From Candidatus Omnitrophota bacterium (GTDB lineage Bacteria > Omnitrophota > Gorgyraeia > Duberdicusellales > 4484-171): a stretch of 64,000 nucleotides of DNA. Below are positions 9,514-30,235 of this stretch, piece by piece (within the stretch, counting starts at the first letter, position 1; each line of letters opens with the position of its first letter). The stretch is from NCBI GenBank assembly GCA_021735655.1, contig JAIPGM010000009.1, forward strand, positions 1 through 64,000. Direction: 5' to 3'. Made by a program: the position numbers and the translations under genes. The notes under the pieces were generated by a model, which worked only from the letters and a program-made list of their open reading frames with translations, was not told where the DNA came from and did not search any database.

Positions 9514-9897
9514 TTATAAAGATTCTAGCATTACACAGAGTCCATAAATTACATCAATGTTATTGTCACGACAAAATTTTATCGCAGTTTCATTTTCAGC
9601 TCCCGGTTGAAGCCAAACTCTTCTTATAGATTTTTCCCGACATTCCTTTACTATCGCCTCGGTAACCGAAGGAGGGGTAACCAGATTAGCAACATCAATA
9701 TTAAAAGGAATATCGCTTATACTTTTATAACCTTTTACTCCGTCGACATCATTTAAACGGGGGTTAACCGGATATGCCTCATACCCCCTTTTTATCAAAG
9801 TCCTCAAAATTTTATACGCGTATTTAGTTTCATTTCTGAACGAGCCCACGACCGCAAATTTCTTCTGCCTTAAAAAATCCTTAACTAAGTTTTCCAT
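9514..9897 (-). CDS. CoA-binding domain protein (YccU/YneT-like)
   Basis: It has the KKFAVVGSFRNETKYAYKI pattern. The start was taken at MENLVKDF. Confidence 0.7.
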   Translation of the reverse strand: MENLVKDFLRQKKFAVVGSFRNETKYAYKILRTLIKRGYEAYPVNPRLNDVDGVKGYKSISDIPFNIDVANLVTPPSVTEAIVKECREKSIRRVWLQPGAENETAIKFCRDNNIDVIYGLCVMLESL

Positions 9898-10738
9898 CTT
9901 TAATCTTATTAAAAAGCTGCTCAAAATCTTTTCTGTATTCGGGAAAGGCTTTTACAATCGGCTCACCTTTTGAATAGGTAATTGCTATCTCCTTTTTAAA
10001 AGGTATCCGCATAAGAATAGGAACATTCTCCTTTTGGCAATACTCATCTGTTTTATTGTCCCCCAAATCCGAGCGGTTAATCACGACCCCAAAAGACACT
10101 TTCAGCTTTCGTAAAACTTCTACAGCCAGCATTAAATCGTTCAACCCAAACGGCGTTGGCTCAGTAACCAACAGGCAAAAATCACTTCTCTTTATAGTCT
10201 CAACCACCGGGCATGATGTACCAGGAGGAGCATCAATAATAACCGTACCTGTTGGATCAATATACTTCTTGATTTGCCTTATGACCGGCGGCACCATTGC
10301 CTCTCCGATATTTAGACGTCCATGTATAAACTGCATAGAACCAACCTCACCAATCTCGATTTCACCAATCTCTTTATTAACTTCCTTTATCGCCGCTTGG
10401 GGACAAAAGTAAGTACAGCTTCCGCAGCCATGGCAAAGGTTCGAAAAGACTAAAATGTTTCCCTTCCTCTCCTTGGATTCGGCTATCACCGCGATAGCAT
10501 TATAAGCGCATACCTGACGACACTTGCCGCAATAATTACACTTTGCTTGGTCAATTTCCGGAACCGGGATAAAAACTTTTTGGATACTGCTTATGGTCGG
10601 CTTCAAAAAAATATGTGCGTTGGGCTCTTCAGCGTCACAATCTAAAAACTGCACCCTCTCCTTTATAGAAAGTGCCAAATTGACCGCTATTGTAGTTTTT
10701 CCTGTCCCGCCTTTTCCGCTGGCAATTGATATAATCAT
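9881..10738 (-). CDS. MinD/ParA-family P-loop ATPase with an inserted 4Fe-4S ferredoxin domain (paralog of 7289..8140)
   Basis: It has SGKGGTGKT plus CNYCGKCRQVC and CHGCGSCTYFCP motifs. The start ATG was verified at 10738. Confidence 0.8.
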   Translation of the reverse strand: MIISIASGKGGTGKTTIAVNLALSIKERVQFLDCDAEEPNAHIFLKPTISSIQKVFIPVPEIDQAKCNYCGKCRQVCAYNAIAVIAESKERKGNILVFSNLCHGCGSCTYFCPQAAIKEVNKEIGEIEIGEVGSMQFIHGRLNIGEAMVPPVIRQIKKYIDPTGTVIIDAPPGTSCPVVETIKRSDFCLLVTEPTPFGLNDLMLAVEVLRKLKVSFGVVINRSDLGDNKTDEYCQKENVPILMRIPFKKEIAITYSKGEPIVKAFPEYRKDFEQLFNKIKDGKLS

Positions 10739-10742
10739 AAAT

Positions 10743-11354
10743 TTACATAAGTGAGTGGCAAGCTGTCACTATTTCCTGAAACTTACTGGAATACGTTTCT
10801 ATGCTAAAATCTTTTCTCTGTAAATATTTACCTATATCGTTTAAGTTTACCGAGCCTGCCTTATGAGTTCTCCCTTCGCTCTCATGAATCTTACCGATTA
10901 GTTTTAACCCCTCTTCGTTAAAATCACTCAAGATAAATTTACCTTCAAAACTAGTTACTCTGATAAGTTCATCCATTACTTTATAAGGATTTTCGAAATG
11001 ATGAATAGCGTTGATTACAAATACTGTATCAAAACTTGCATCTTTAAAGCTAAATTGTTCGGCATTTTCTATTTGAAAATTTACCAATTTTGCAAAACCA
11101 AAATATTTTATATTCCGTCTAGCATAATCTTGTTCTTGATACGAAACGTCAACACTAGTAAAATTATACCCTGCCTTAGCTAACTCAACAGTAAAATAAC
11201 CTTTTCCAGTCCCCACTTCTAGAATATCTCCATCGAAAGGGCATGATTTCTCTAAAATAAATTTACGCTCTTTTTCAATATCGTAACCAAAGCTTTTATA
11301 AAAATTTACCCTTTCTAAATATCGAGTATAATAATCTGATGTTTTATTTTCCAA
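10743..11354 (-). CDS. Class I SAM-dependent methyltransferase
   Basis: It has the ILEVGTGKGYF motif I. The start is TTG, verified at 11354, with SD AAGGGAGT. Confidence 0.75.
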   Translation of the reverse strand: MENKTSDYYTRYLERVNFYKSFGYDIEKERKFILEKSCPFDGDILEVGTGKGYFTVELAKAGYNFTSVDVSYQEQDYARRNIKYFGFAKLVNFQIENAEQFSFKDASFDTVFVINAIHHFENPYKVMDELIRVTSFEGKFILSDFNEEGLKLIGKIHESEGRTHKAGSVNLNDIGKYLQRKDFSIETYSSKFQEIVTACHSLM

Positions 11355-24314: not shown

Positions 24315-24890
24315 CTATTTTCTTTTTAAAAACGAACTATTATGTTTTCGTAAAAATCTTCTATGCGGATTGCCTAGAGGGAACAGATTATTTTCAGTTA
24401 CAAACTGCATATCTTCTATGGTATAAAAAGCATTAGGATTGAATTTCTTTATTATTTGTATAACCCTTTTTAAATTCTTGCGTTTAACCACACTAAAAAT
24501 AACTTTAACCGGTCCATCTTTACCTTGAGCATTAATACTGGTGACGCCATAACCCTGCTTACTCATAAACTGCACTAAATCTACGGCATCTTTCTTAGTT
24601 ACTATTTGAATCATAAGATTACCCATTAGAATTCGTCTTTCTATAGAAATGCCCACAAAGTTTCCCATACCAAACCCAGCGGCATAAGCGATGTAATGGC
24701 TTACACTGCTTAGATTCTTCATTATCTGAGTAATAGCTATAAGCCAAATTAAAACTTCAAAAAAACCCAATACGGCTGACAAGAATCTTATCCCCCGGGA
24801 AACAAATATAATCCTGATAGTGCCGATAGTAACATCGATAATGCGGGCTAGAAAAATCAAAAACGGAATTAAGATATAATTTATTTCCAT
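24315..24890 (-). CDS. UPF0316/DUF2179-family membrane protein
   Basis: It has three N-terminal TM helices plus a C-terminal soluble domain. It is the last gene of the KamA-ATP-grasp operon. Confidence 0.5.
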   Translation of the reverse strand: MEINYILIPFLIFLARIIDVTIGTIRIIFVSRGIRFLSAVLGFFEVLIWLIAITQIMKNLSSVSHYIAYAAGFGMGNFVGISIERRILMGNLMIQIVTKKDAVDLVQFMSKQGYGVTSINAQGKDGPVKVIFSVVKRKNLKRVIQIIKKFNPNAFYTIEDMQFVTENNLFPLGNPHRRFLRKHNSSFLKRK

Positions 24891-24902: not shown

Positions 24903-25979
24903 TTAGCGAAAAATCTTTAATATTTTATTACGCCAGTTATTATAAAAATAATGTGCTTTGGGCCCAGCCTGCTTTAGCAATTCCGGAGAACTACCTAGCC
25001 CCCTTATTTCAATCATTGCATCCTTAAGAAAAATTGAATATCTTTTGCTGATTTTTTTATTATTAATAAACCGCTGGGCAGCATCAACGATGTTATTAGC
25101 AGTAAACTGAGCGATCTGATCGGGTACACCACTAGGAGTTTCAGATTGAGAAGTCATATCGCATTGGTCGTTAACGTAATCTATGACTAAAAAACGCTTT
25201 TTTCCCTGTTTTTCATCAATAGCTATTTCACTTGAAAACCAAGCCATCCGGGTTATCGAAGCAATTTTAGAAACTATCTTGGCTAAGGGGAAAAGACTAT
25301 GCTTATTAAATTCTTCATAACCTATATGTTCATAACGATTAGCCTGATCATCCCACCAGCAAGGTATTATAGTATCAAATACATTAAACCCTCGAAACCA
25401 AGCACGTTTTCCTTCTATTTGGATAGGAACAATCTTCTCCTGTAGTAAAAAATTATCGCCTCGGTCAAACTTCCGAGCTTGAGCAATTTCTCGAATTGTG
25501 CCCCGAGCATCACGAATAACACCTAATTGACCATAGCCAAGCGCCGGCTTTATTACAAAAGGAACCCCTAGTTTCTTCTTCTCCTCATCGGGAAGCCTAA
25601 AAGTAGTCGGTTCCCAGTTACGAACAACAACTGTATAGGGAGCCATAATCCCGGCATTGATTAACTCATAGTGCATTGCTGATTTATCAATTGCACTCTG
25701 GGCCCGATCAGGATCATTAATAACCACCCCACCGCTATCTTTTACATCATAGCAAATACGAGTGTAGATATCGCCTTTTTTATTATAGGTAGCCTCGGTG
25801 TCCAGTAAAGCCTTGATTACAAGCTTTCTTTGATCAAGATCCCGAGCCACTTGCCTTACATTATCTTTAGATATCCAAAGGAAAGAAAGTTTTCTTTGCT
25901 TGCAAGCGGCCTGGAGTAAAACAACAAACCTCTCCTTGATATTACCACTCCAAGTCAAACCAAAATCGTATCTTTTCAT
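24903..25979 (-). CDS. ATP-grasp enzyme (RimK/LysX-like ligase?)
   Basis: It has VPFVIKPALGYGQLGV, matching the ATP-grasp KP..GS.G.GV pattern. There is a 9-nt gap to the LdcA-like gene. Confidence 0.5.
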   Translation of the reverse strand: MKRYDFGLTWSGNIKERFVVLLQAACKQRKLSFLWISKDNVRQVARDLDQRKLVIKALLDTEATYNKKGDIYTRICYDVKDSGGVVINDPDRAQSAIDKSAMHYELINAGIMAPYTVVVRNWEPTTFRLPDEEKKKLGVPFVIKPALGYGQLGVIRDARGTIREIAQARKFDRGDNFLLQEKIVPIQIEGKRAWFRGFNVFDTIIPCWWDDQANRYEHIGYEEFNKHSLFPLAKIVSKIASITRMAWFSSEIAIDEKQGKKRFLVIDYVNDQCDMTSQSETPSGVPDQIAQFTANNIVDAAQRFINNKKISKRYSIFLKDAMIEIRGLGSSPELLKQAGPKAHYFYNNWRNKILKIFR

Positions 25980-25988
25980 TATCTTATT

Positions 25989-26909
25989 TTAAACAACTGC
26001 ACTTTCGGCAACTGTTAATGACAGCCTATCAGCATCGATAGTTACCGGAAGTCCCAAAGGCAAGGTAACATGAAGCCCACCGCGCAAACGCAAATGCCCG
26101 GAAGGAAATCCATACAATACCGGGATATCCTGTCCTTTAAATAACTTTTCTATTAGTTTACGTAAATCATGGTCTTTACCTGAAGAGTCAAGCATTCTGC
26201 CTAAAAGTAACCCCTTGATATTTTTAAACTTCCCTGAACGCTTGAGACGAAAAAAATAATTTCTAATGGTATTAAAGTCTTCGTTGACGTCCTCTAAAAA
26301 CAAAATGCTGCCGGCAGTCCTTATTCGGTAAGACTTACCTATTGAATCAATGATTAAAGACATATTGCCGCCAACCAGCTTACCGGTAGCTACTCCCAGC
26401 TTAAAAGCAATCAGCTGGGGGAATTTCAATTCTCCCAAAGGCTTAGTTTCACTAAAAAGCCTTTGCAGATATTCAAGAGTCAGCTGATGCATTCCTTGAT
26501 AAATCTCCCCGGAAACTATCGGCCCGTGAAAAACAACCATCTTAGCCAATTTTTGCAAATAGAGTAAGATAATAGTTATATCACTGTACCCGAGAAAAAT
26601 TTTGGGATTTTTTCTAATAGTTTTCTCATCTAGGTAGGGTATAATTTCGGCTGAACCGTAACCGGCTTCAGCACAAAAAATAGCTCTCACTTCTTTGTCG
26701 GCAAACATCCGATTTATCTGCATGGCCCGCTGACGATCATGATCGGGCTTAGACCATTTCGGATCAAAAATTACTCGTTCATATTTAACTTTATAGCCTA
26801 GCTCTTTAAGCAGTTCAACGCCGCTTTTAAATTTATCCACATCAAAAGAACTTGCCGGAGCTACTATACCGATAGTATCACCAAGTTCTAATTTTTGAGG
26901 CTTACGCAT
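25989..26909 (-). CDS. LD-carboxypeptidase (peptidase S66; LdcA/MccF family)
   Basis: It has the GYSDIT nucleophile motif and a C-terminal GH...E triad region. There is a 2-nt gap to the upstream gene. Confidence 0.8.
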   Translation of the reverse strand: MRKPQKLELGDTIGIVAPASSFDVDKFKSGVELLKELGYKVKYERVIFDPKWSKPDHDRQRAMQINRMFADKEVRAIFCAEAGYGSAEIIPYLDEKTIRKNPKIFLGYSDITIILLYLQKLAKMVVFHGPIVSGEIYQGMHQLTLEYLQRLFSETKPLGELKFPQLIAFKLGVATGKLVGGNMSLIIDSIGKSYRIRTAGSILFLEDVNEDFNTIRNYFFRLKRSGKFKNIKGLLLGRMLDSSGKDHDLRKLIEKLFKGQDIPVLYGFPSGHLRLRGGLHVTLPLGLPVTIDADRLSLTVAESAVV

Positions 26910-26911
26910 TT

Positions 26912-29107
26912 TTACCTATCAAAGCTAAAACCATAACGATTAAATGAATCTTGCAAAATCAACCTTATTAAACTATTGTAACTGTTACCTTTCAATTTGT
27001 AAAGAATTGGTAAATCACCATACGAAGATGAGAGACCAGGCAAAGGGTTAATATCTATTATCTTAGGTTTGTTCTGAGTATCAAGGCGAAAATCTATACG
27101 CGCCATATCCTTTAATTCTAATTCTTTATATGCCTTTATAGCATAAAATTCAATTATTTTCTGAATATTTTTTAAAATACTCTCCTGTGGCTCATATTTA
27201 ACTTTATTTTGCCAATCCTGTTTGATCTCAAGAGAATAGAGAAAGTTCTTGCAAGCCTTATCCCTAGGCACTATTTTCATCATTCCTAGAATTTGTGGAA
27301 CTTCATTGCCGTAAACTCCTACGGTAATCTCATCTCTCTCCAAAAACTCTTCTATCAAGGCCGGCTGTTCATATTTCGAAATTATTTCCTCTACTCTCTT
27401 TTTTAAATCATCAAAGTTGCTGACTAAAGAATTAAGAAAAATTCCCTTTGAAGAACCTTCCCAACGCGGCTTTACAAGAAATGACCCGTTTCCTCCAAAA
27501 ATATTTCCTAAATTTTCTAAATCTTTGACATCCTTAATCATAGCCATCTCTGGAACCAGAATATTTGCTGATTTTAATAATCTATTGGTTAGGTATTTAT
27601 CTAGAGTGATTCCTAAGGCGACTGGATCTGATCCCGAATAGGGTATATCTAAGCTTTCAAGGATTGCCGGAACTTGCGATTCACGCCCCCTCTTATCCCC
27701 TCTGCCTTCGGCGATATTAAAAACGAAATCCGGCCTTTGACTCAACAATCGTTTTAGAAAATTATCATCCTGCTCAAAAATAACTACCTTGAAACCGTAT
27801 TTTTCTATTTCTTTCTTTATGCTTTCAATGGTCTCAATTTCGTCGTATTCCTCATGGTTCTCGCCAGCATCCTTATTTTTAAGATTAAATGTTATACCTA
27901 TTGTATTCACTGAGCGGACTTTTTTAGAATTAGTTATTGCTTCTGGCTGAACAGGAGTATCCTGATAAAAAAATATTTCATCTTTATAATTTTTTAATAT
28001 CATTCCTCGGTCAGAATCTGAAACCAAATAATCAGGACCAAAGGGGATTTTACCTTTCCCGCCTATAGCATCAATAACAAAAGTCGGTACACACATACCG
28101 CTAGTAAACCCCTGCATTTTTTTGATAATTTCTCTACCTTGCCAAGGTGATGTTCGAAAATGAGATGTCCCGCTAACCGGATCACACTGAAATAAATAAT
28201 ATGGCCTAACCCTTATCGCTTGTAGTCTCTGACATAAATCCCTCATCACTTGCAAGTTATCATTCACCCCCTTAAGCAATACTGACTGATTGCTTACAGG
28301 AATACCTATTTTTTGTAGTTTTCTGCAAGCTAAAGCTGCCTGAGGGGTAATTTCTCTAGGGTGGTTGAACTGGACATTAACCCAAACATTGTCATATTTT
28401 TTTAGCATCTCACAAAGCCGATCATCTATCCGCCGAGGGAAAACAACCGGAGTACGCGTACCGATACGGACAACCTCAATATTACTAAAAGAATGAATTT
28501 TTGAAAGTATAGCTTCTAGCCGTTCTGTAGGTAAAGTTAAAGGGTCTCCTCCGGAAACTATTATCTCCCTAATTTTCGGATTCCGGCCCACATAATTTAA
28601 GGCTCTATCTATATCTTCTAGGGTTGGTTCATTTATTTTTTTGCTCCATATTCTTTTTCTTGTGCAGTGGCGGCAATACATAAAGCAACGGTTAGTTACT
28701 AAAAGCAGTGCCCGATCAGGATAGCGGTGTACTAAGCAATCTAAGGGAGAACTCTTTTCCTCAGCTAAAGGATCCTTGCTTTCAAAGGAACCTTGGCTAA
28801 GCTCATCAAAATTAGGTATGCATTGTTTTCCAATCGGATCGCAGTTATCAGAGGTATTTTCAATTAAGGAAAAGTAGTAAAAAGGAATTTTCAAATGGTA
28901 AGCATCAGAAACTTTCTTTAATCGACAAATCTGTTCTTTATCTAAAGGTAGGTATCGAGAAAGGTCTTCAATGTTGTTAATAAACTCTTTAGGATCATAA
29001 TACTCTCTCCCAACATCAAGAGTTTTGTTGTGATAATTTACAGTTTCATAACTAGGTCCGCCAGGTTCCTCTTCAAGGAAAGTTTCAGCATCCAAGTTAT
29101 TGCTCAT
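26912..29107 (-). CDS. Fusion protein: KamA-family radical SAM aminomutase (lysine/glutamate 2,3-aminomutase-like) N-domain plus D-Ala-D-Ala-ligase-type ATP-grasp C-domain
   Basis: The N-domain has HRYPDRALLLVTNRCFMYCRHCTRKR (CX3CX2C) and SGGDPL. The C-terminal 330 aa have a Ddl-like pattern (DFVFNIAEGRGDKRGRESQVPAILESLDIPYSGS...ARIDFRLD...IDINPLPG). Upstream is RBS GAGGAGG. Confidence 0.8.
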   Translation of the reverse strand: MSNNLDAETFLEEEPGGPSYETVNYHNKTLDVGREYYDPKEFINNIEDLSRYLPLDKEQICRLKKVSDAYHLKIPFYYFSLIENTSDNCDPIGKQCIPNFDELSQGSFESKDPLAEEKSSPLDCLVHRYPDRALLLVTNRCFMYCRHCTRKRIWSKKINEPTLEDIDRALNYVGRNPKIREIIVSGGDPLTLPTERLEAILSKIHSFSNIEVVRIGTRTPVVFPRRIDDRLCEMLKKYDNVWVNVQFNHPREITPQAALACRKLQKIGIPVSNQSVLLKGVNDNLQVMRDLCQRLQAIRVRPYYLFQCDPVSGTSHFRTSPWQGREIIKKMQGFTSGMCVPTFVIDAIGGKGKIPFGPDYLVSDSDRGMILKNYKDEIFFYQDTPVQPEAITNSKKVRSVNTIGITFNLKNKDAGENHEEYDEIETIESIKKEIEKYGFKVVIFEQDDNFLKRLLSQRPDFVFNIAEGRGDKRGRESQVPAILESLDIPYSGSDPVALGITLDKYLTNRLLKSANILVPEMAMIKDVKDLENLGNIFGGNGSFLVKPRWEGSSKGIFLNSLVSNFDDLKKRVEEIISKYEQPALIEEFLERDEITVGVYGNEVPQILGMMKIVPRDKACKNFLYSLEIKQDWQNKVKYEPQESILKNIQKIIEFYAIKAYKELELKDMARIDFRLDTQNKPKIIDINPLPGLSSSYGDLPILYKLKGNSYNSLIRLILQDSFNRYGFSFDR

Positions 29108-29177
29108 TTTTCCTCCTCACTCAGGTAAAAGTCCACCCGGGAAAATTATAAATTACCCTATGATATCTCCATTCTCT

Positions 29178-29507
29178 CTAATAATCTTGGTCAGGATAAA
29201 CTTCTTCGCTGTCATCATCGTATCCTAACTCTTCATCATAAATATACTCATAGCTCAAAGCCCGCAAACCTTCCTGGCTATTTTCGGCTTTAATTTCCAC
29301 ATTATCTCCAAGCTCAAAATAAGCCTCTTCTACTAACTCTTTAGTAGTTAGCACTTTTTGACCACCAACAGTAATATAGCTACCGTCCTCGGAAATCTGC
29401 TCTATCTTACCCTTAAGCAACACTGAATCATCTTCCTGAGCAAAAGCAAAAGTTGTCCCAGCCAAAATCATAACCAACAACAATGTTAAATATTTTTTCA
29501 TGACCAT
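29178..29507 (-). CDS. Secreted small protein with an acidic C-terminal tail, hypothetical
   Basis: It has signal peptide ...TTFAFA|QE and an acidic tail DEELGYDDDSEEVYPDQDY. Confidence 0.5.
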   Translation of the reverse strand: MVMKKYLTLLLVMILAGTTFAFAQEDDSVLLKGKIEQISEDGSYITVGGQKVLTTKELVEEAYFELGDNVEIKAENSQEGLRALSYEYIYDEELGYDDDSEEVYPDQDY

Positions 29508-29725
29508 TCCTCCCTTTCTCCTTTTCCGTTAAAATCTTCTTCCTCCTCACTGTAATCCACGTAATCATCCCAGGTGCCGATTTCTTCCTCTAGCTCTACC
29601 GGATTAAGCTTGGTTAATTTAAGCTCTGCAAAACAACCCTGACAATTAAGGATATCGGCAATCCCCAAACCTTCTTCAATCTCAACATTTTCTTTACAAA
29701 CCGGACATTTGGTTTTTTTAACCAT
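29498..29725 (-). CDS. LysW-like zinc-ribbon small protein with an acidic C-terminal tail (candidate amino-group carrier protein)
   Basis: Two Cys pairs (CPVC...CQGC) are followed by AELKL..LNPVELEEE and an acidic tail ending EEWS. This parallels the Thermus LysW pattern CPECGAEL...CEDCGAELEV..LDPLRLE...EDWGE. Upstream is SD AAGGAGGT. Confidence 0.5.
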   Translation of the reverse strand: MVKKTKCPVCKENVEIEEGLGIADILNCQGCFAELKLTKLNPVELEEEIGTWDDYVDYSEEEEDFNGKGEREEWS

Positions 29726-29839: not shown

Positions 29840-30178
29840 TTATCTTTTAGTTCGACGAGTTGCTTTTTTATCACTGGCGAAAGTTTTAGTAGCTCTAAAC
29901 TGAGAAACAATAAAATCGGTAATTCGACATTGAGGAGAATTAAGATCCTTATTGCGCCGGTAAAAAACCGAGTTGCCCTTTCTCCGGTCAAAAACTAGCT
30001 TAAGCAGGCGCAACCTCATTAGATGCTTGGAAATCGTAGGCTGGCTTACTTTTAAAACAACACATATATCTTTAACGGTAAGTTCTTTCTCATCCAGCAC
30101 ATTTATTATCCTTAGACGCGTATCATCGGAGCAGGCTTTAAATATCTGGCGTAATGATTTTAGATTTACTTTTCGCAT
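29840..30178 (-). CDS. ArsR/SmtB-family transcriptional regulator
   Basis: It has an HTH_20 pattern: SDDTRLRIINVL...LTVKDICVVLKVSQPTISKHL. I moved the start to the internal ATG (MRKVNLK) because the promoter lies inside the longer track ORF. Confidence 0.8.
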   Translation of the reverse strand: MRKVNLKSLRQIFKACSDDTRLRIINVLDEKELTVKDICVVLKVSQPTISKHLMRLRLLKLVFDRRKGNSVFYRRNKDLNSPQCRITDFIVSQFRATKTFASDKKATRRTKR

Positions 30179-30196
30179 ATAACATTCCTTTATTGG

Positions 30197-30235
30197 TATA
30201 TACGTATATATATCATCGGTTAAAAAGGTTGTCAA
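30197..30235 (-). promoter_or_regulatory. Sigma-70 promoter TTGACA-17-TATATA for arsR-family gene, with a 14-bp perfect palindrome TATATACGTATATA across the -10/+1 (probable auto-operator)
   Basis: The -35 is at 30230-30235. The palindrome is at 30197-30210. The spacer is 17 nt. Confidence 0.55.

Follow-up and report, generated by a model that had tools for sequence, protein, structure and literature searches.

The fusion gene and its two domains

The DNA analysed here is a stretch of 64,000 nucleotides of contig JAIPGM010000009.1, from a Candidatus Omnitrophota bacterium; this whole stretch is called the window. Positions 26912 to 29107 carry on the minus strand a single open reading frame (ORF) of 731 codons plus a stop, with an ATG start and zero internal stops. 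The encoded protein joins a KamA-family radical S-adenosylmethionine (SAM) aminomutase to an ATP-grasp ligase of the D-alanine--D-alanine ligase (Ddl) type, hereafter ATP-grasp A. The initial annotation had the coordinates right but the strand has to be corrected; the plus-strand reading of this interval was dropped, its translation being riddled with stops. The protein is 100% identical to the NCBI entry 'MAG: KamA family radical SAM protein [Candidatus Omnitrophica bacterium]' (P0001). The KamA hallmarks noticed at the outset, CX3CX2C and SGGDPL, are present in CFMYCRHCTRKR (residues 141-152) and at residues 185-190, respectively. Pfam detects the domains Radical_SAM (residues 136-284, E 1e-16), LAM_C (328-413, E 2e-15) and Dala_Dala_lig_C (543-718, E 5e-28). 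These matches are far above chance level, and Pfam, NCBIfam, phmmer and Foldseek all bear out that a KamA-type radical SAM domain and a Ddl-type ATP-grasp domain share one polypeptide. The fusion protein belongs to both the KamA family and the ATP-grasp superfamily. Its AlphaFold2 model, obtained from an alignment of 65 fused homologues, has a mean predicted local distance difference test score (pLDDT) of 88.6 and a predicted template modelling score (pTM) of 0.54. The positions of all features are given in Table 1.

The N-terminal domain belongs to the KamA family, with a score of 294.7 bits for the NCBIfam subfamily model TIGR00238 (cutoff 199.2). It matches the lysine 2,3-aminomutase (LAM) structure 2A5H in a phmmer search of the PDB (E 1e-105) and in a Foldseek comparison of the N-half of the model (E 2e-37). 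In the window protein, the cluster cysteines are C141, C145 and C148, the carboxylate-binding residue is R150 and the lysine that binds pyridoxal 5'-phosphate (PLP) is K353. The alignment to 2A5H reveals that D309 and D346 correspond to Asp293 and Asp330, the binders of the lysine epsilon-amine in LAM. The conservation of this pocket was counted in 194 KamA domains of the family, numbered after 2A5H. The three cluster cysteines and the equivalents of Arg134 and Asp330 are kept in 194/194 domains, the equivalent of Asp293 in 192 and that of the PLP-binding Lys337 in 193. Since the equivalents of Asp293 and Asp330 are conserved, lysine is favoured over glutamate as substrate; Ruzicka and Frey reportedly found Lys and Asn in glutamate 2,3-aminomutases where LAM has the two Asp. 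The initial annotation had proposed an assay with Lys or Glu, and the pocket agrees with the first and is not of the glutamate type. Among the NCBIfam equivalogs, the AblA lysine 2,3-aminomutase (TIGR03820) gives the best score, ahead of the models of glutamate 2,3-aminomutase (380 bits), arginine 2,3-aminomutase (344 bits) and EpmB (236 bits). The assignment of the domain as a lysine 2,3-aminomutase converting L-lysine to beta-lysine is well supported by these sequence features, with which arginine or ornithine as substrate is still compatible.

The C-terminal domain, described initially as a complete Ddl-like ATP-grasp, is indeed complete. NCBIfam Ddl models align across nearly their full length (profile positions 26-302 of 305) to residues 426-722, and Foldseek superposes the C-half of the model on whole DdlB chains over about 320 columns, with a target-normalised template modelling (TM) score of 0.85-0.87 and a root-mean-square deviation of about 3 Å. 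The three-subdomain fold is that of Ddl and the PDB matches listed are all Ddl, which answers the initial concern that the C-domain might have another fold. The residues were mapped from the sequence of the Escherichia coli DdlB, which is self-consistent at 16 numbered landmark residues. All the ATP, Mg and catalytic residues of Ddl are present: the equivalents of DdlB K97, K144, E180, E187, K215, R255, D257, E/D270 and N272 are invariant in 168 ATP-grasp A sequences and in 69 sequences of the paralogous ATP-grasp B, and the catalytic residues kept in the window ligase are K504, K546, E586, E593, K629, R670, D672, D685 and N687. The substrate site is altered. In the 168 ATP-grasp A sequences, H63 of DdlB is replaced by an invariant Glu, E68 by an invariant Arg, L282 by Asp (141/168) and Y216 by Arg, Trp or Gln (Gln in the window protein); a Glu and a Ser are retained at E15 and in the S150 region. 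The set of residues by which a true Ddl handles D-Ala (the triad E15-S150-Y216 with H63, S281 and L282) is thus not found. The family-specific residues of the window ligase are E420, E467, R475, E476 and D698. The putative pocket has more acidic residues than that of Ddl and would suit a positively charged substrate, for example a diamino acid; the retained ATP, Mg and catalytic residues fit a competent ligase.

Recurrence of the fusion and the parent cassette

Fused homologues, aligned without a break across the linker, were recovered at 34-84% identity from many independent assemblies in NCBI, JGI, ENA and Logan. Among the 120 best homologue clusters of the window protein, 94 are fused, of which 83 have the order KamA to ATP-grasp and 11 the reverse order; the other 26 contain KamA alone. 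Those of the fused clusters that carry a name are from Omnitrophota, Magnetoovum (Nitrospirota), Eubacteriales, Methanocellales, Woesearchaeota and Thermoplasmatota. Fused genes were confirmed from the DNA at 10 independent loci (L001, L003, L005, L007-L012 and L091), and KamA and ATP-grasp A are separate genes in some Omnitrophota (L014-L016). One of the ten loci, L007, encodes a triple fusion of Peptidase_S51, ATP-grasp and KamA (P0068), where Peptidase_S51 is the cyanophycinase/dipeptidase E family. Tandem fusions of the two ligases, in the order A-B or B-A, are common proteins of about 650-790 residues (P0121, P0124-P0126, P0134, P0148 and others). In a rough tree, the fused forms are nested within unfused clades and the fusion therefore arose several times, the parsimony count of these events being rough as well. 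At the Eubacteriales locus (L005), the reverse-order fusion is convergent with an operon under the control of a lysine riboswitch, composed of dapA, dapB, dapF, an aminotransferase gene and lysA, and ending in a 719-residue DUF4855 protein. This lysine riboswitch, upstream of the dap operon, is the sole Rfam match, and no Na+ or other riboswitch was detected on the cassette described below; Rfam detected no regulatory RNA in the 64-kb window.

A profile scan with the ATP-grasp domain, in one genome per species, gave at least 594 confirmed matches, and the best 80 loci were annotated with hidden Markov models. The dominant arrangement in these loci is a cassette of four genes on one strand, namely KamA, ATP-grasp A, the paralogous ATP-grasp B and a small GNAT. 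In 54 of the 80 loci, KamA has a gene of its own directly upstream of ATP-grasp A; it is fused to ATP-grasp A in three loci and is localized elsewhere within the locus in seven. Nine loci lack KamA up to a distance of about 9 kb from ATP-grasp A, and the upstream flank is too short to judge in the last seven. ATP-grasp B comes after ATP-grasp A in 65 loci and the GNAT is present in 54. The fusion is the joined form of the first two genes of this conserved, uncharacterised cassette. The initial statement that KamA homologues normally stand alone holds in so far as most family members are unfused, but it overstates the uniqueness of the fusion, which joins two neighbouring genes. As Rosetta-stone evidence, the repeated fusions argue strongly for a pathway from beta-lysine to an amide. 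From this gene linkage, which supports it well, we infer that the ligase uses the product of the aminomutase, as first suggested.

The carriers of the cassette are mostly Dehalococcoidia, and others belong to Planctomycetota (Gemmatales), Synergistaceae, Acidobacteriota, Syntrophales, WOR-3 and Thermodesulfobacteriota. Clustered at 90% identity, the ATP-grasp A family comprises at least 2178 clusters. When 1.84 billion representatives were searched exhaustively, 374 clusters were detected at E <= 1e-30, and the best 148 of these contain 92 stand-alone ATP-grasp A, about 27 tandem A-B or B-A proteins and few KamA fusions. Family members are also found in Methanocellales, Thermoplasmatota, Woesearchaeota and Dehalococcoidia, and the family takes in 'Ddl' homologues of murein-free archaea and of Dehalococcoidia. 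Other genes that recur beside the cassette encode an amidohydrolase of the histone-deacetylase family and a MarR-type regulator, in 15 loci each, and transporters of the MarC or MFS type. In L043 and 14 other Dehalococcoidia loci, the GNAT is followed by a protein of 579 residues. Its C-terminal part is a histone-deacetylase/acetylpolyamine-amidohydrolase domain (PF00850, 244 bits), and its N-terminal half of about 260 residues has no family assignment. This deacetylase-type neighbour suggests a cycle of acetylation and deacetylation on the cassette product. The cultured Aminithiophilus ramosus (L095, CP072943) possesses ATP-grasp A, ATP-grasp B and the GNAT between two EntS-type MFS_3 transporters, and the trio adjoins a peptide ABC importer of the Opp/Dpp type. 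An identity of the cassette GNAT with AblB was considered and is unsupported, the matches being generic, RimI-like and below cutoff and the AblB model unmatched.

Searches of the full-text literature returned neither a KamA/ATP-grasp fusion nor a KamA, ATP-grasp, ATP-grasp, GNAT cassette. The public labels are generic: 'KamA family radical SAM protein', 'ATP-grasp domain-containing protein' or 'D-alanine--D-alanine ligase family protein'. Each of the two enzyme families is familiar, but the combination of the two is not. The widespread unannotated cassette exposed by the fusion is a more interesting result than the fusion itself.

The six-gene module of the Omnitrophota

In the window, the fusion is the fourth gene of a module of six, in the order ArsR regulator, LysW-type zinc ribbon, small acidic-tailed protein, fusion, S66 peptidase and a protein of 358 residues that has no Pfam match. 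The module recurs with different flanks at L010 (77% identity) and L091 (67% identity). Neither ATP-grasp B nor GNAT was detected across the whole window, and a scan for promoters and terminators gave counts equal to the shuffled expectation.

Table 1. Positions of the features of the window and of related genes at other surveyed loci (L numbers)
Feature	Position	Strand	Evidence
KamA-family aminomutase + Ddl-type ATP-grasp ligase fusion, whole ORF	26912..29107	-	ORF translation, Pfam, NCBIfam
Aminomutase domain, residues 40-385	27953..28990	-	phmmer against PDB, residue alignment, AlphaFold/Foldseek
Inter-domain linker, residues 386-396, predicted disordered (pLDDT < 50)	27920..27952	-	AlphaFold model
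ATP-grasp A domain, residues 397-731, complete Ddl fold	26915..27919	-	Pfam, NCBIfam, AlphaFold/Foldseek, DdlB mapping
Shine-Dalgarno GAGGAGG, 4 nt 5' of the fusion-gene ATG	29112..29118	-	sequence motif
ArsR/HTH_5 regulator, head of module	29840..30235	-	Pfam, synteny
LysW-type zinc-ribbon protein, 75 aa, long acidic tail; outside the default ORF list	29498..29725	-	PF21344
Small protein, 109 aa, between LysW-like gene and aminomutase	29178..29507	-	weak DUF5666 match; syntenic in Omnitrophota
S66 serine amidase/carboxypeptidase, 306 aa, start 2 nt past the fusion stop	25989..26909	-	Pfam; syntenic in L010, L091
Pfam-less ATP-grasp ligase (predicted), 358 aa, LysX/ArgX/RimK-like	24903..25979	-	structure model, NCBIfam
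DUF5698/DUF2179 membrane protein, 12 nt downstream of the 358-aa ligase gene	24315..24890	-	domain annotation
LysW-like copies (61-85 aa)	L008:7287-7472, L010:7342-7536, L011:7055-7273, L012:1655-1858, L014:6832-7044, L016:789-1016, L091:6272-6466
Copies of the 109-aa protein	L008:7453-7866, L010:7557-7889, L011:7308-7685, L012:1974-2381, L014:6992-7465, L016:1030-1452
S66 + 358-aa gene pair, no KamA or LysW-like ORF	L093:5042-7086, L094:4305-6268
DUF5698/DUF2179 gene near the S66/358-aa pair	L093:2227-2826		domain annotation
Peptidase_S51/ATP-grasp/KamA triple fusion (P0068)	L007:8001-10835
Reverse-order fusion with convergent dap/lysA operon, Eubacteriales	L005:4007-11484
579-aa protein with deacetylase domain, after GNAT	L043:11422-13161		PF00850
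EntS-type MFS_3 transporters, Aminithiophilus ramosus	L095 (CP072943):5379-6671, 9702-11003

The LysW-like protein is recognized as a zinc ribbon by PF21344 (28.6 bits for a gathering score of 27), and its score with the curated LysW model TIGR01206 (20.6 bits) is below the cutoff of 53.2. The C-termini of its copies are variable (..DD, ..ENEE, ..EDEF, ..EEWS) and none has the EDWGE end of true LysW. Among the surveyed loci, only those of Omnitrophota have the LysW-like gene upstream of the aminomutase and ligase genes, and they have it whether these are fused or separate. The adjacent protein of 109 residues displays a hydrophobic N-terminus, signal-peptide-like by eye, and an acidic tail ending in Tyr. 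The last residue is aromatic in the tails ..DQDY, ..ELSY, ..IDSY, ..DLEW, ..EQEY, ..PQGY and ..PSDY of this family, and the L091 copy ends in ..DYLGQ.

The S66 protein contains both S66 domains (PF02016, 113 bits; PF17676, 88 bits), and its motifs GYSD, FLED and SGH, which hold the Ser-Glu-His triad, are intact and align with those of MccF. An assignment as LdcA was rejected, the score with NF008424 being 98 bits for a cutoff of 378; the protein is nearer MccF (104 bits) than LdcA (84 bits). The protein of 358 residues belongs to a family of more than 1000 members, all annotated 'hypothetical', which are 55-91% identical across Omnitrophota and some of which are labelled Elusimicrobiota. Its model (pLDDT 86, pTM 0.85) is an ATP-grasp, of which the best structural match is the ArgX-LysW complex 3vpb (E 2.9e-12), with TM 0.70-0.73 for LysX; these matches are modestly ahead of Ddl. 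LysX is also its best NCBIfam match (E 6e-5), below the curated cutoff. The S66 and 358-residue genes form a conserved pair, with neither KamA nor a LysW-like ORF, in another Omnitrophota genome and in Margulisiibacteriota (L093 and L094), which weakens the view that they are specific members of the cassette. Near the pair in L093, a DUF5698/DUF2179 gene stands beside two genes of MscS-type mechanosensitive channels. These MscS and DUF5698/DUF2179 surroundings may hint at an osmotic context.

Proposed pathway and alternative readings

The fusion protein is probably a bifunctional enzyme, converting lysine to beta-lysine and then ligating beta-lysine through an ATP-dependent amide bond. In the first step, well supported by the sequence, the N-terminal radical SAM/PLP domain would produce beta-lysine from L-lysine. 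In the second, the tethered Ddl-type ATP-grasp would use ATP to form an acyl-phosphate and then an amide bond incorporating beta-lysine. In the version that we prefer, after PylC, the ligase would activate the carboxylate of beta-lysine, on which the amine of another cationic amino acid (lysine or beta-lysine) would then act, and the product would be a beta-lysyl isopeptide. In most lineages, the remainder of the cassette (ATP-grasp B and GNAT) would extend this product and N-acetylate it. In the Omnitrophota clade, the LysX/ArgX-like ligase is a tentative candidate for the extension and the MccF-like S66 amidase for a hydrolysis, because both genes are directly downstream of the fusion and ATP-grasp B and GNAT are absent.

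The physiological role could be that of a beta-lysine-based solute or osmolyte, of a polycation or nitrogen store, or of an exported metabolite. The hydrolase partners (S66, S51 in the triple fusion and the Dehalococcoidia deacetylase) and the transporters are compatible with several of these roles; the EntS-type MFS_3 genes of Aminithiophilus ramosus suggest a product that may leave the cell. We propose tentatively that the cassette may make an undescribed small peptide or oligomer containing beta-lysine, its synthesis possibly coupled to a LysW-type carrier in Omnitrophota. If this is true, the compound would be an important metabolite of numerous anaerobes, most of them uncultured (Dehalococcoidia, Planctomycetota, Synergistota, Omnitrophota, DPANN and other archaea). 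It could be an osmolyte, polycation or exported compound, and the LysW-type coupling would extend the amino-group-carrier chemistry past lysine/arginine biosynthesis and actinobacterial secondary metabolism. Cultured Synergistota with the ligase and GNAT genes (Aminithiophilus ramosus and possibly relatives in Aminobacterium and Aminivibrio) make the question experimentally approachable.

AblA and AblB make N-epsilon-acetyl-beta-lysine. Salt-regulated ablA genes have been documented (PMC9337991). This system is the closest metabolic precedent, since the cassette likewise pairs a lysine aminomutase with a GNAT and AblA is the top model of the N-terminal domain; however, the cassette has two Ddl-type ATP-grasp ligases between aminomutase and GNAT, its GNATs are small, RimI-like and unmatched by the AblB model, the AblA cutoff is missed and the window has no GNAT. 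The closest mechanistic precedent is PylB/PylC of pyrrolysine biosynthesis. There, the radical SAM mutase PylB rearranges lysine and PylC, a Ddl-like ATP-grasp, attaches the rearranged product to N-epsilon of another lysine; the proposed pathway has the same sequence of a radical SAM rearrangement and an acyl-phosphate ligation. In contrast to the fusion, PylB is neither of the KamA family nor PLP-dependent, PylB and PylC are separate proteins, PylC is not among the PDB matches listed and no pylD or pylS/pylT context was seen. EpmB/EpmA also couples a KamA-family enzyme to a dedicated ligase fed with beta-lysine, but EpmA is a paralogue of LysRS and not an ATP-grasp, and the EpmB score is far under that of AblA. 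Ngg of the synthesis of N-acetylglutaminylglutamine amide (NAGGN), a GNAT and ATP-grasp enzyme, makes an N-acetylated dipeptide osmolyte and shows that ATP-grasp and GNAT activities together can build a capped small peptide, as is proposed for the cassette. It differs from the cassette in enzyme families and substrates, its pathway involves no aminomutase and the cassette has no amidotransferase.

Several points weigh against a beta-lysine ligase of this kind. The fusion protein is under all curated equivalog cutoffs (425.6 bits for 525.4 with AblA TIGR03820; at best 137.4 for 243 with Ddl, for which every equivalog and subfamily cutoff is missed). Neither the AblA nor the Ddl label is fitting, given these scores and the replaced D-Ala residues. 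The structural Zn site of the clostridial aminomutase (Cys268, Cys375, Cys377 and Cys380) is not found: an Asn occupies the position of Cys268, of which an equivalent exists in just 5 of the 194 KamA domains, and the C-terminal Cys triad is missing from the alignment. Since these cysteines hold the oligomer, the quaternary structure may differ from that of LAM. ATP-grasp A is not strictly dependent on an adjacent aminomutase, because nine of the 80 loci lack a nearby KamA and none is present within about 7 kb on either side of the Aminithiophilus ramosus trio. The link of the S66 and 358-residue genes to the pathway is uncertain because the pair also stands without KamA. Our reading rests on sequence, models and gene linkage, from which the substrates of the ligase are inferred. 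Finally, no fixed geometry is predicted between the two halves of the protein. The substrate channelling put forward in the initial annotation is unsupported as a physical channel because the linker is predicted to be disordered, the pTM is low at 0.54, both domain orders exist and most family members are unfused; co-expression and proximity give a more economical account of the fusion.

Among the alternatives to the bifunctional enzyme, a carrier-protein route survives best, and we consider it unlikely. Beta-lysine or lysine would act as the amine nucleophile, an ATP-grasp enzyme of the module would activate a carboxylate of the acidic LysW-like tail, the intermediates would stay bound to that protein and the S66 protein would free the product, a release performed by LysK in the LysW pathway. 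This route accounts for an acidic-tailed zinc ribbon above the Pfam gathering score, whose gene keeps its place beside those of the aminomutase and ligase in Omnitrophota, and for a neighbouring ATP-grasp nearest the ArgX-LysW and LysX structures and the LysX model. However, the LysW-like gene is not beside the cassette outside Omnitrophota, its C-terminus is unconserved without EDWGE, the LysW and LysX cutoffs are unmet, the preference for ArgX/LysX over Ddl is small, the S66/LysX-like pair occurs without a LysW-like ORF, and no LysZ, LysY, LysJ or LysK was seen. Another aminomutase substrate (glutamate, arginine or ornithine), which would supply the ligase with a different beta-amino acid, appears still less likely. 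The score below the AblA cutoff and those of the glutamate and arginine models leave some room for it; both epsilon-amine Asp are conserved, AblA is the top model and one fusion is beside a lysine biosynthesis operon, all of which speak for lysine.

The modification of a protein by beta-lysylation, in the manner of EpmB/EpmA on elongation factor P (EF-P) or of a RimK/TTL-type tail modification, is improbable. It is suggested by the small acidic-tailed proteins encoded beside the enzyme in Omnitrophota and by EpmB, a KamA-family enzyme known to supply beta-lysine for protein modification. It is opposed by the low EpmB score relative to AblA and by the surveyed neighbourhoods, where no efp or epmA-like gene was found; moreover, the cassette also exists in archaea, where aIF5A carries hypusine, and its neighbours, among them a GNAT, a deacetylase and transporters, point to a small molecule. 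An ordinary D-Ala-D-Ala ligase of the cell wall, fused by chance to an unrelated domain, is a highly improbable reading of the C-domain. Ddl models and structures are the best family-level matches of this domain, but the identity to Ddl is about 22%, all Ddl cutoffs are missed, H63, E68, Y216 and L282 are replaced, the linkage to KamA is tight, and the family occurs in the archaeal lineages listed above and in Dehalococcoidia; archaea have no murein and cultivated Dehalococcoides no peptidoglycan wall. An assembly or sequencing artefact, by which two ORFs would be joined through a missed stop or a frameshift, has nothing in its favour other than the separate genes of some Omnitrophota and is rejected, because fused homologues recur across independent assemblies, in 94 of the 120 top clusters and at the 10 loci re-read from DNA.

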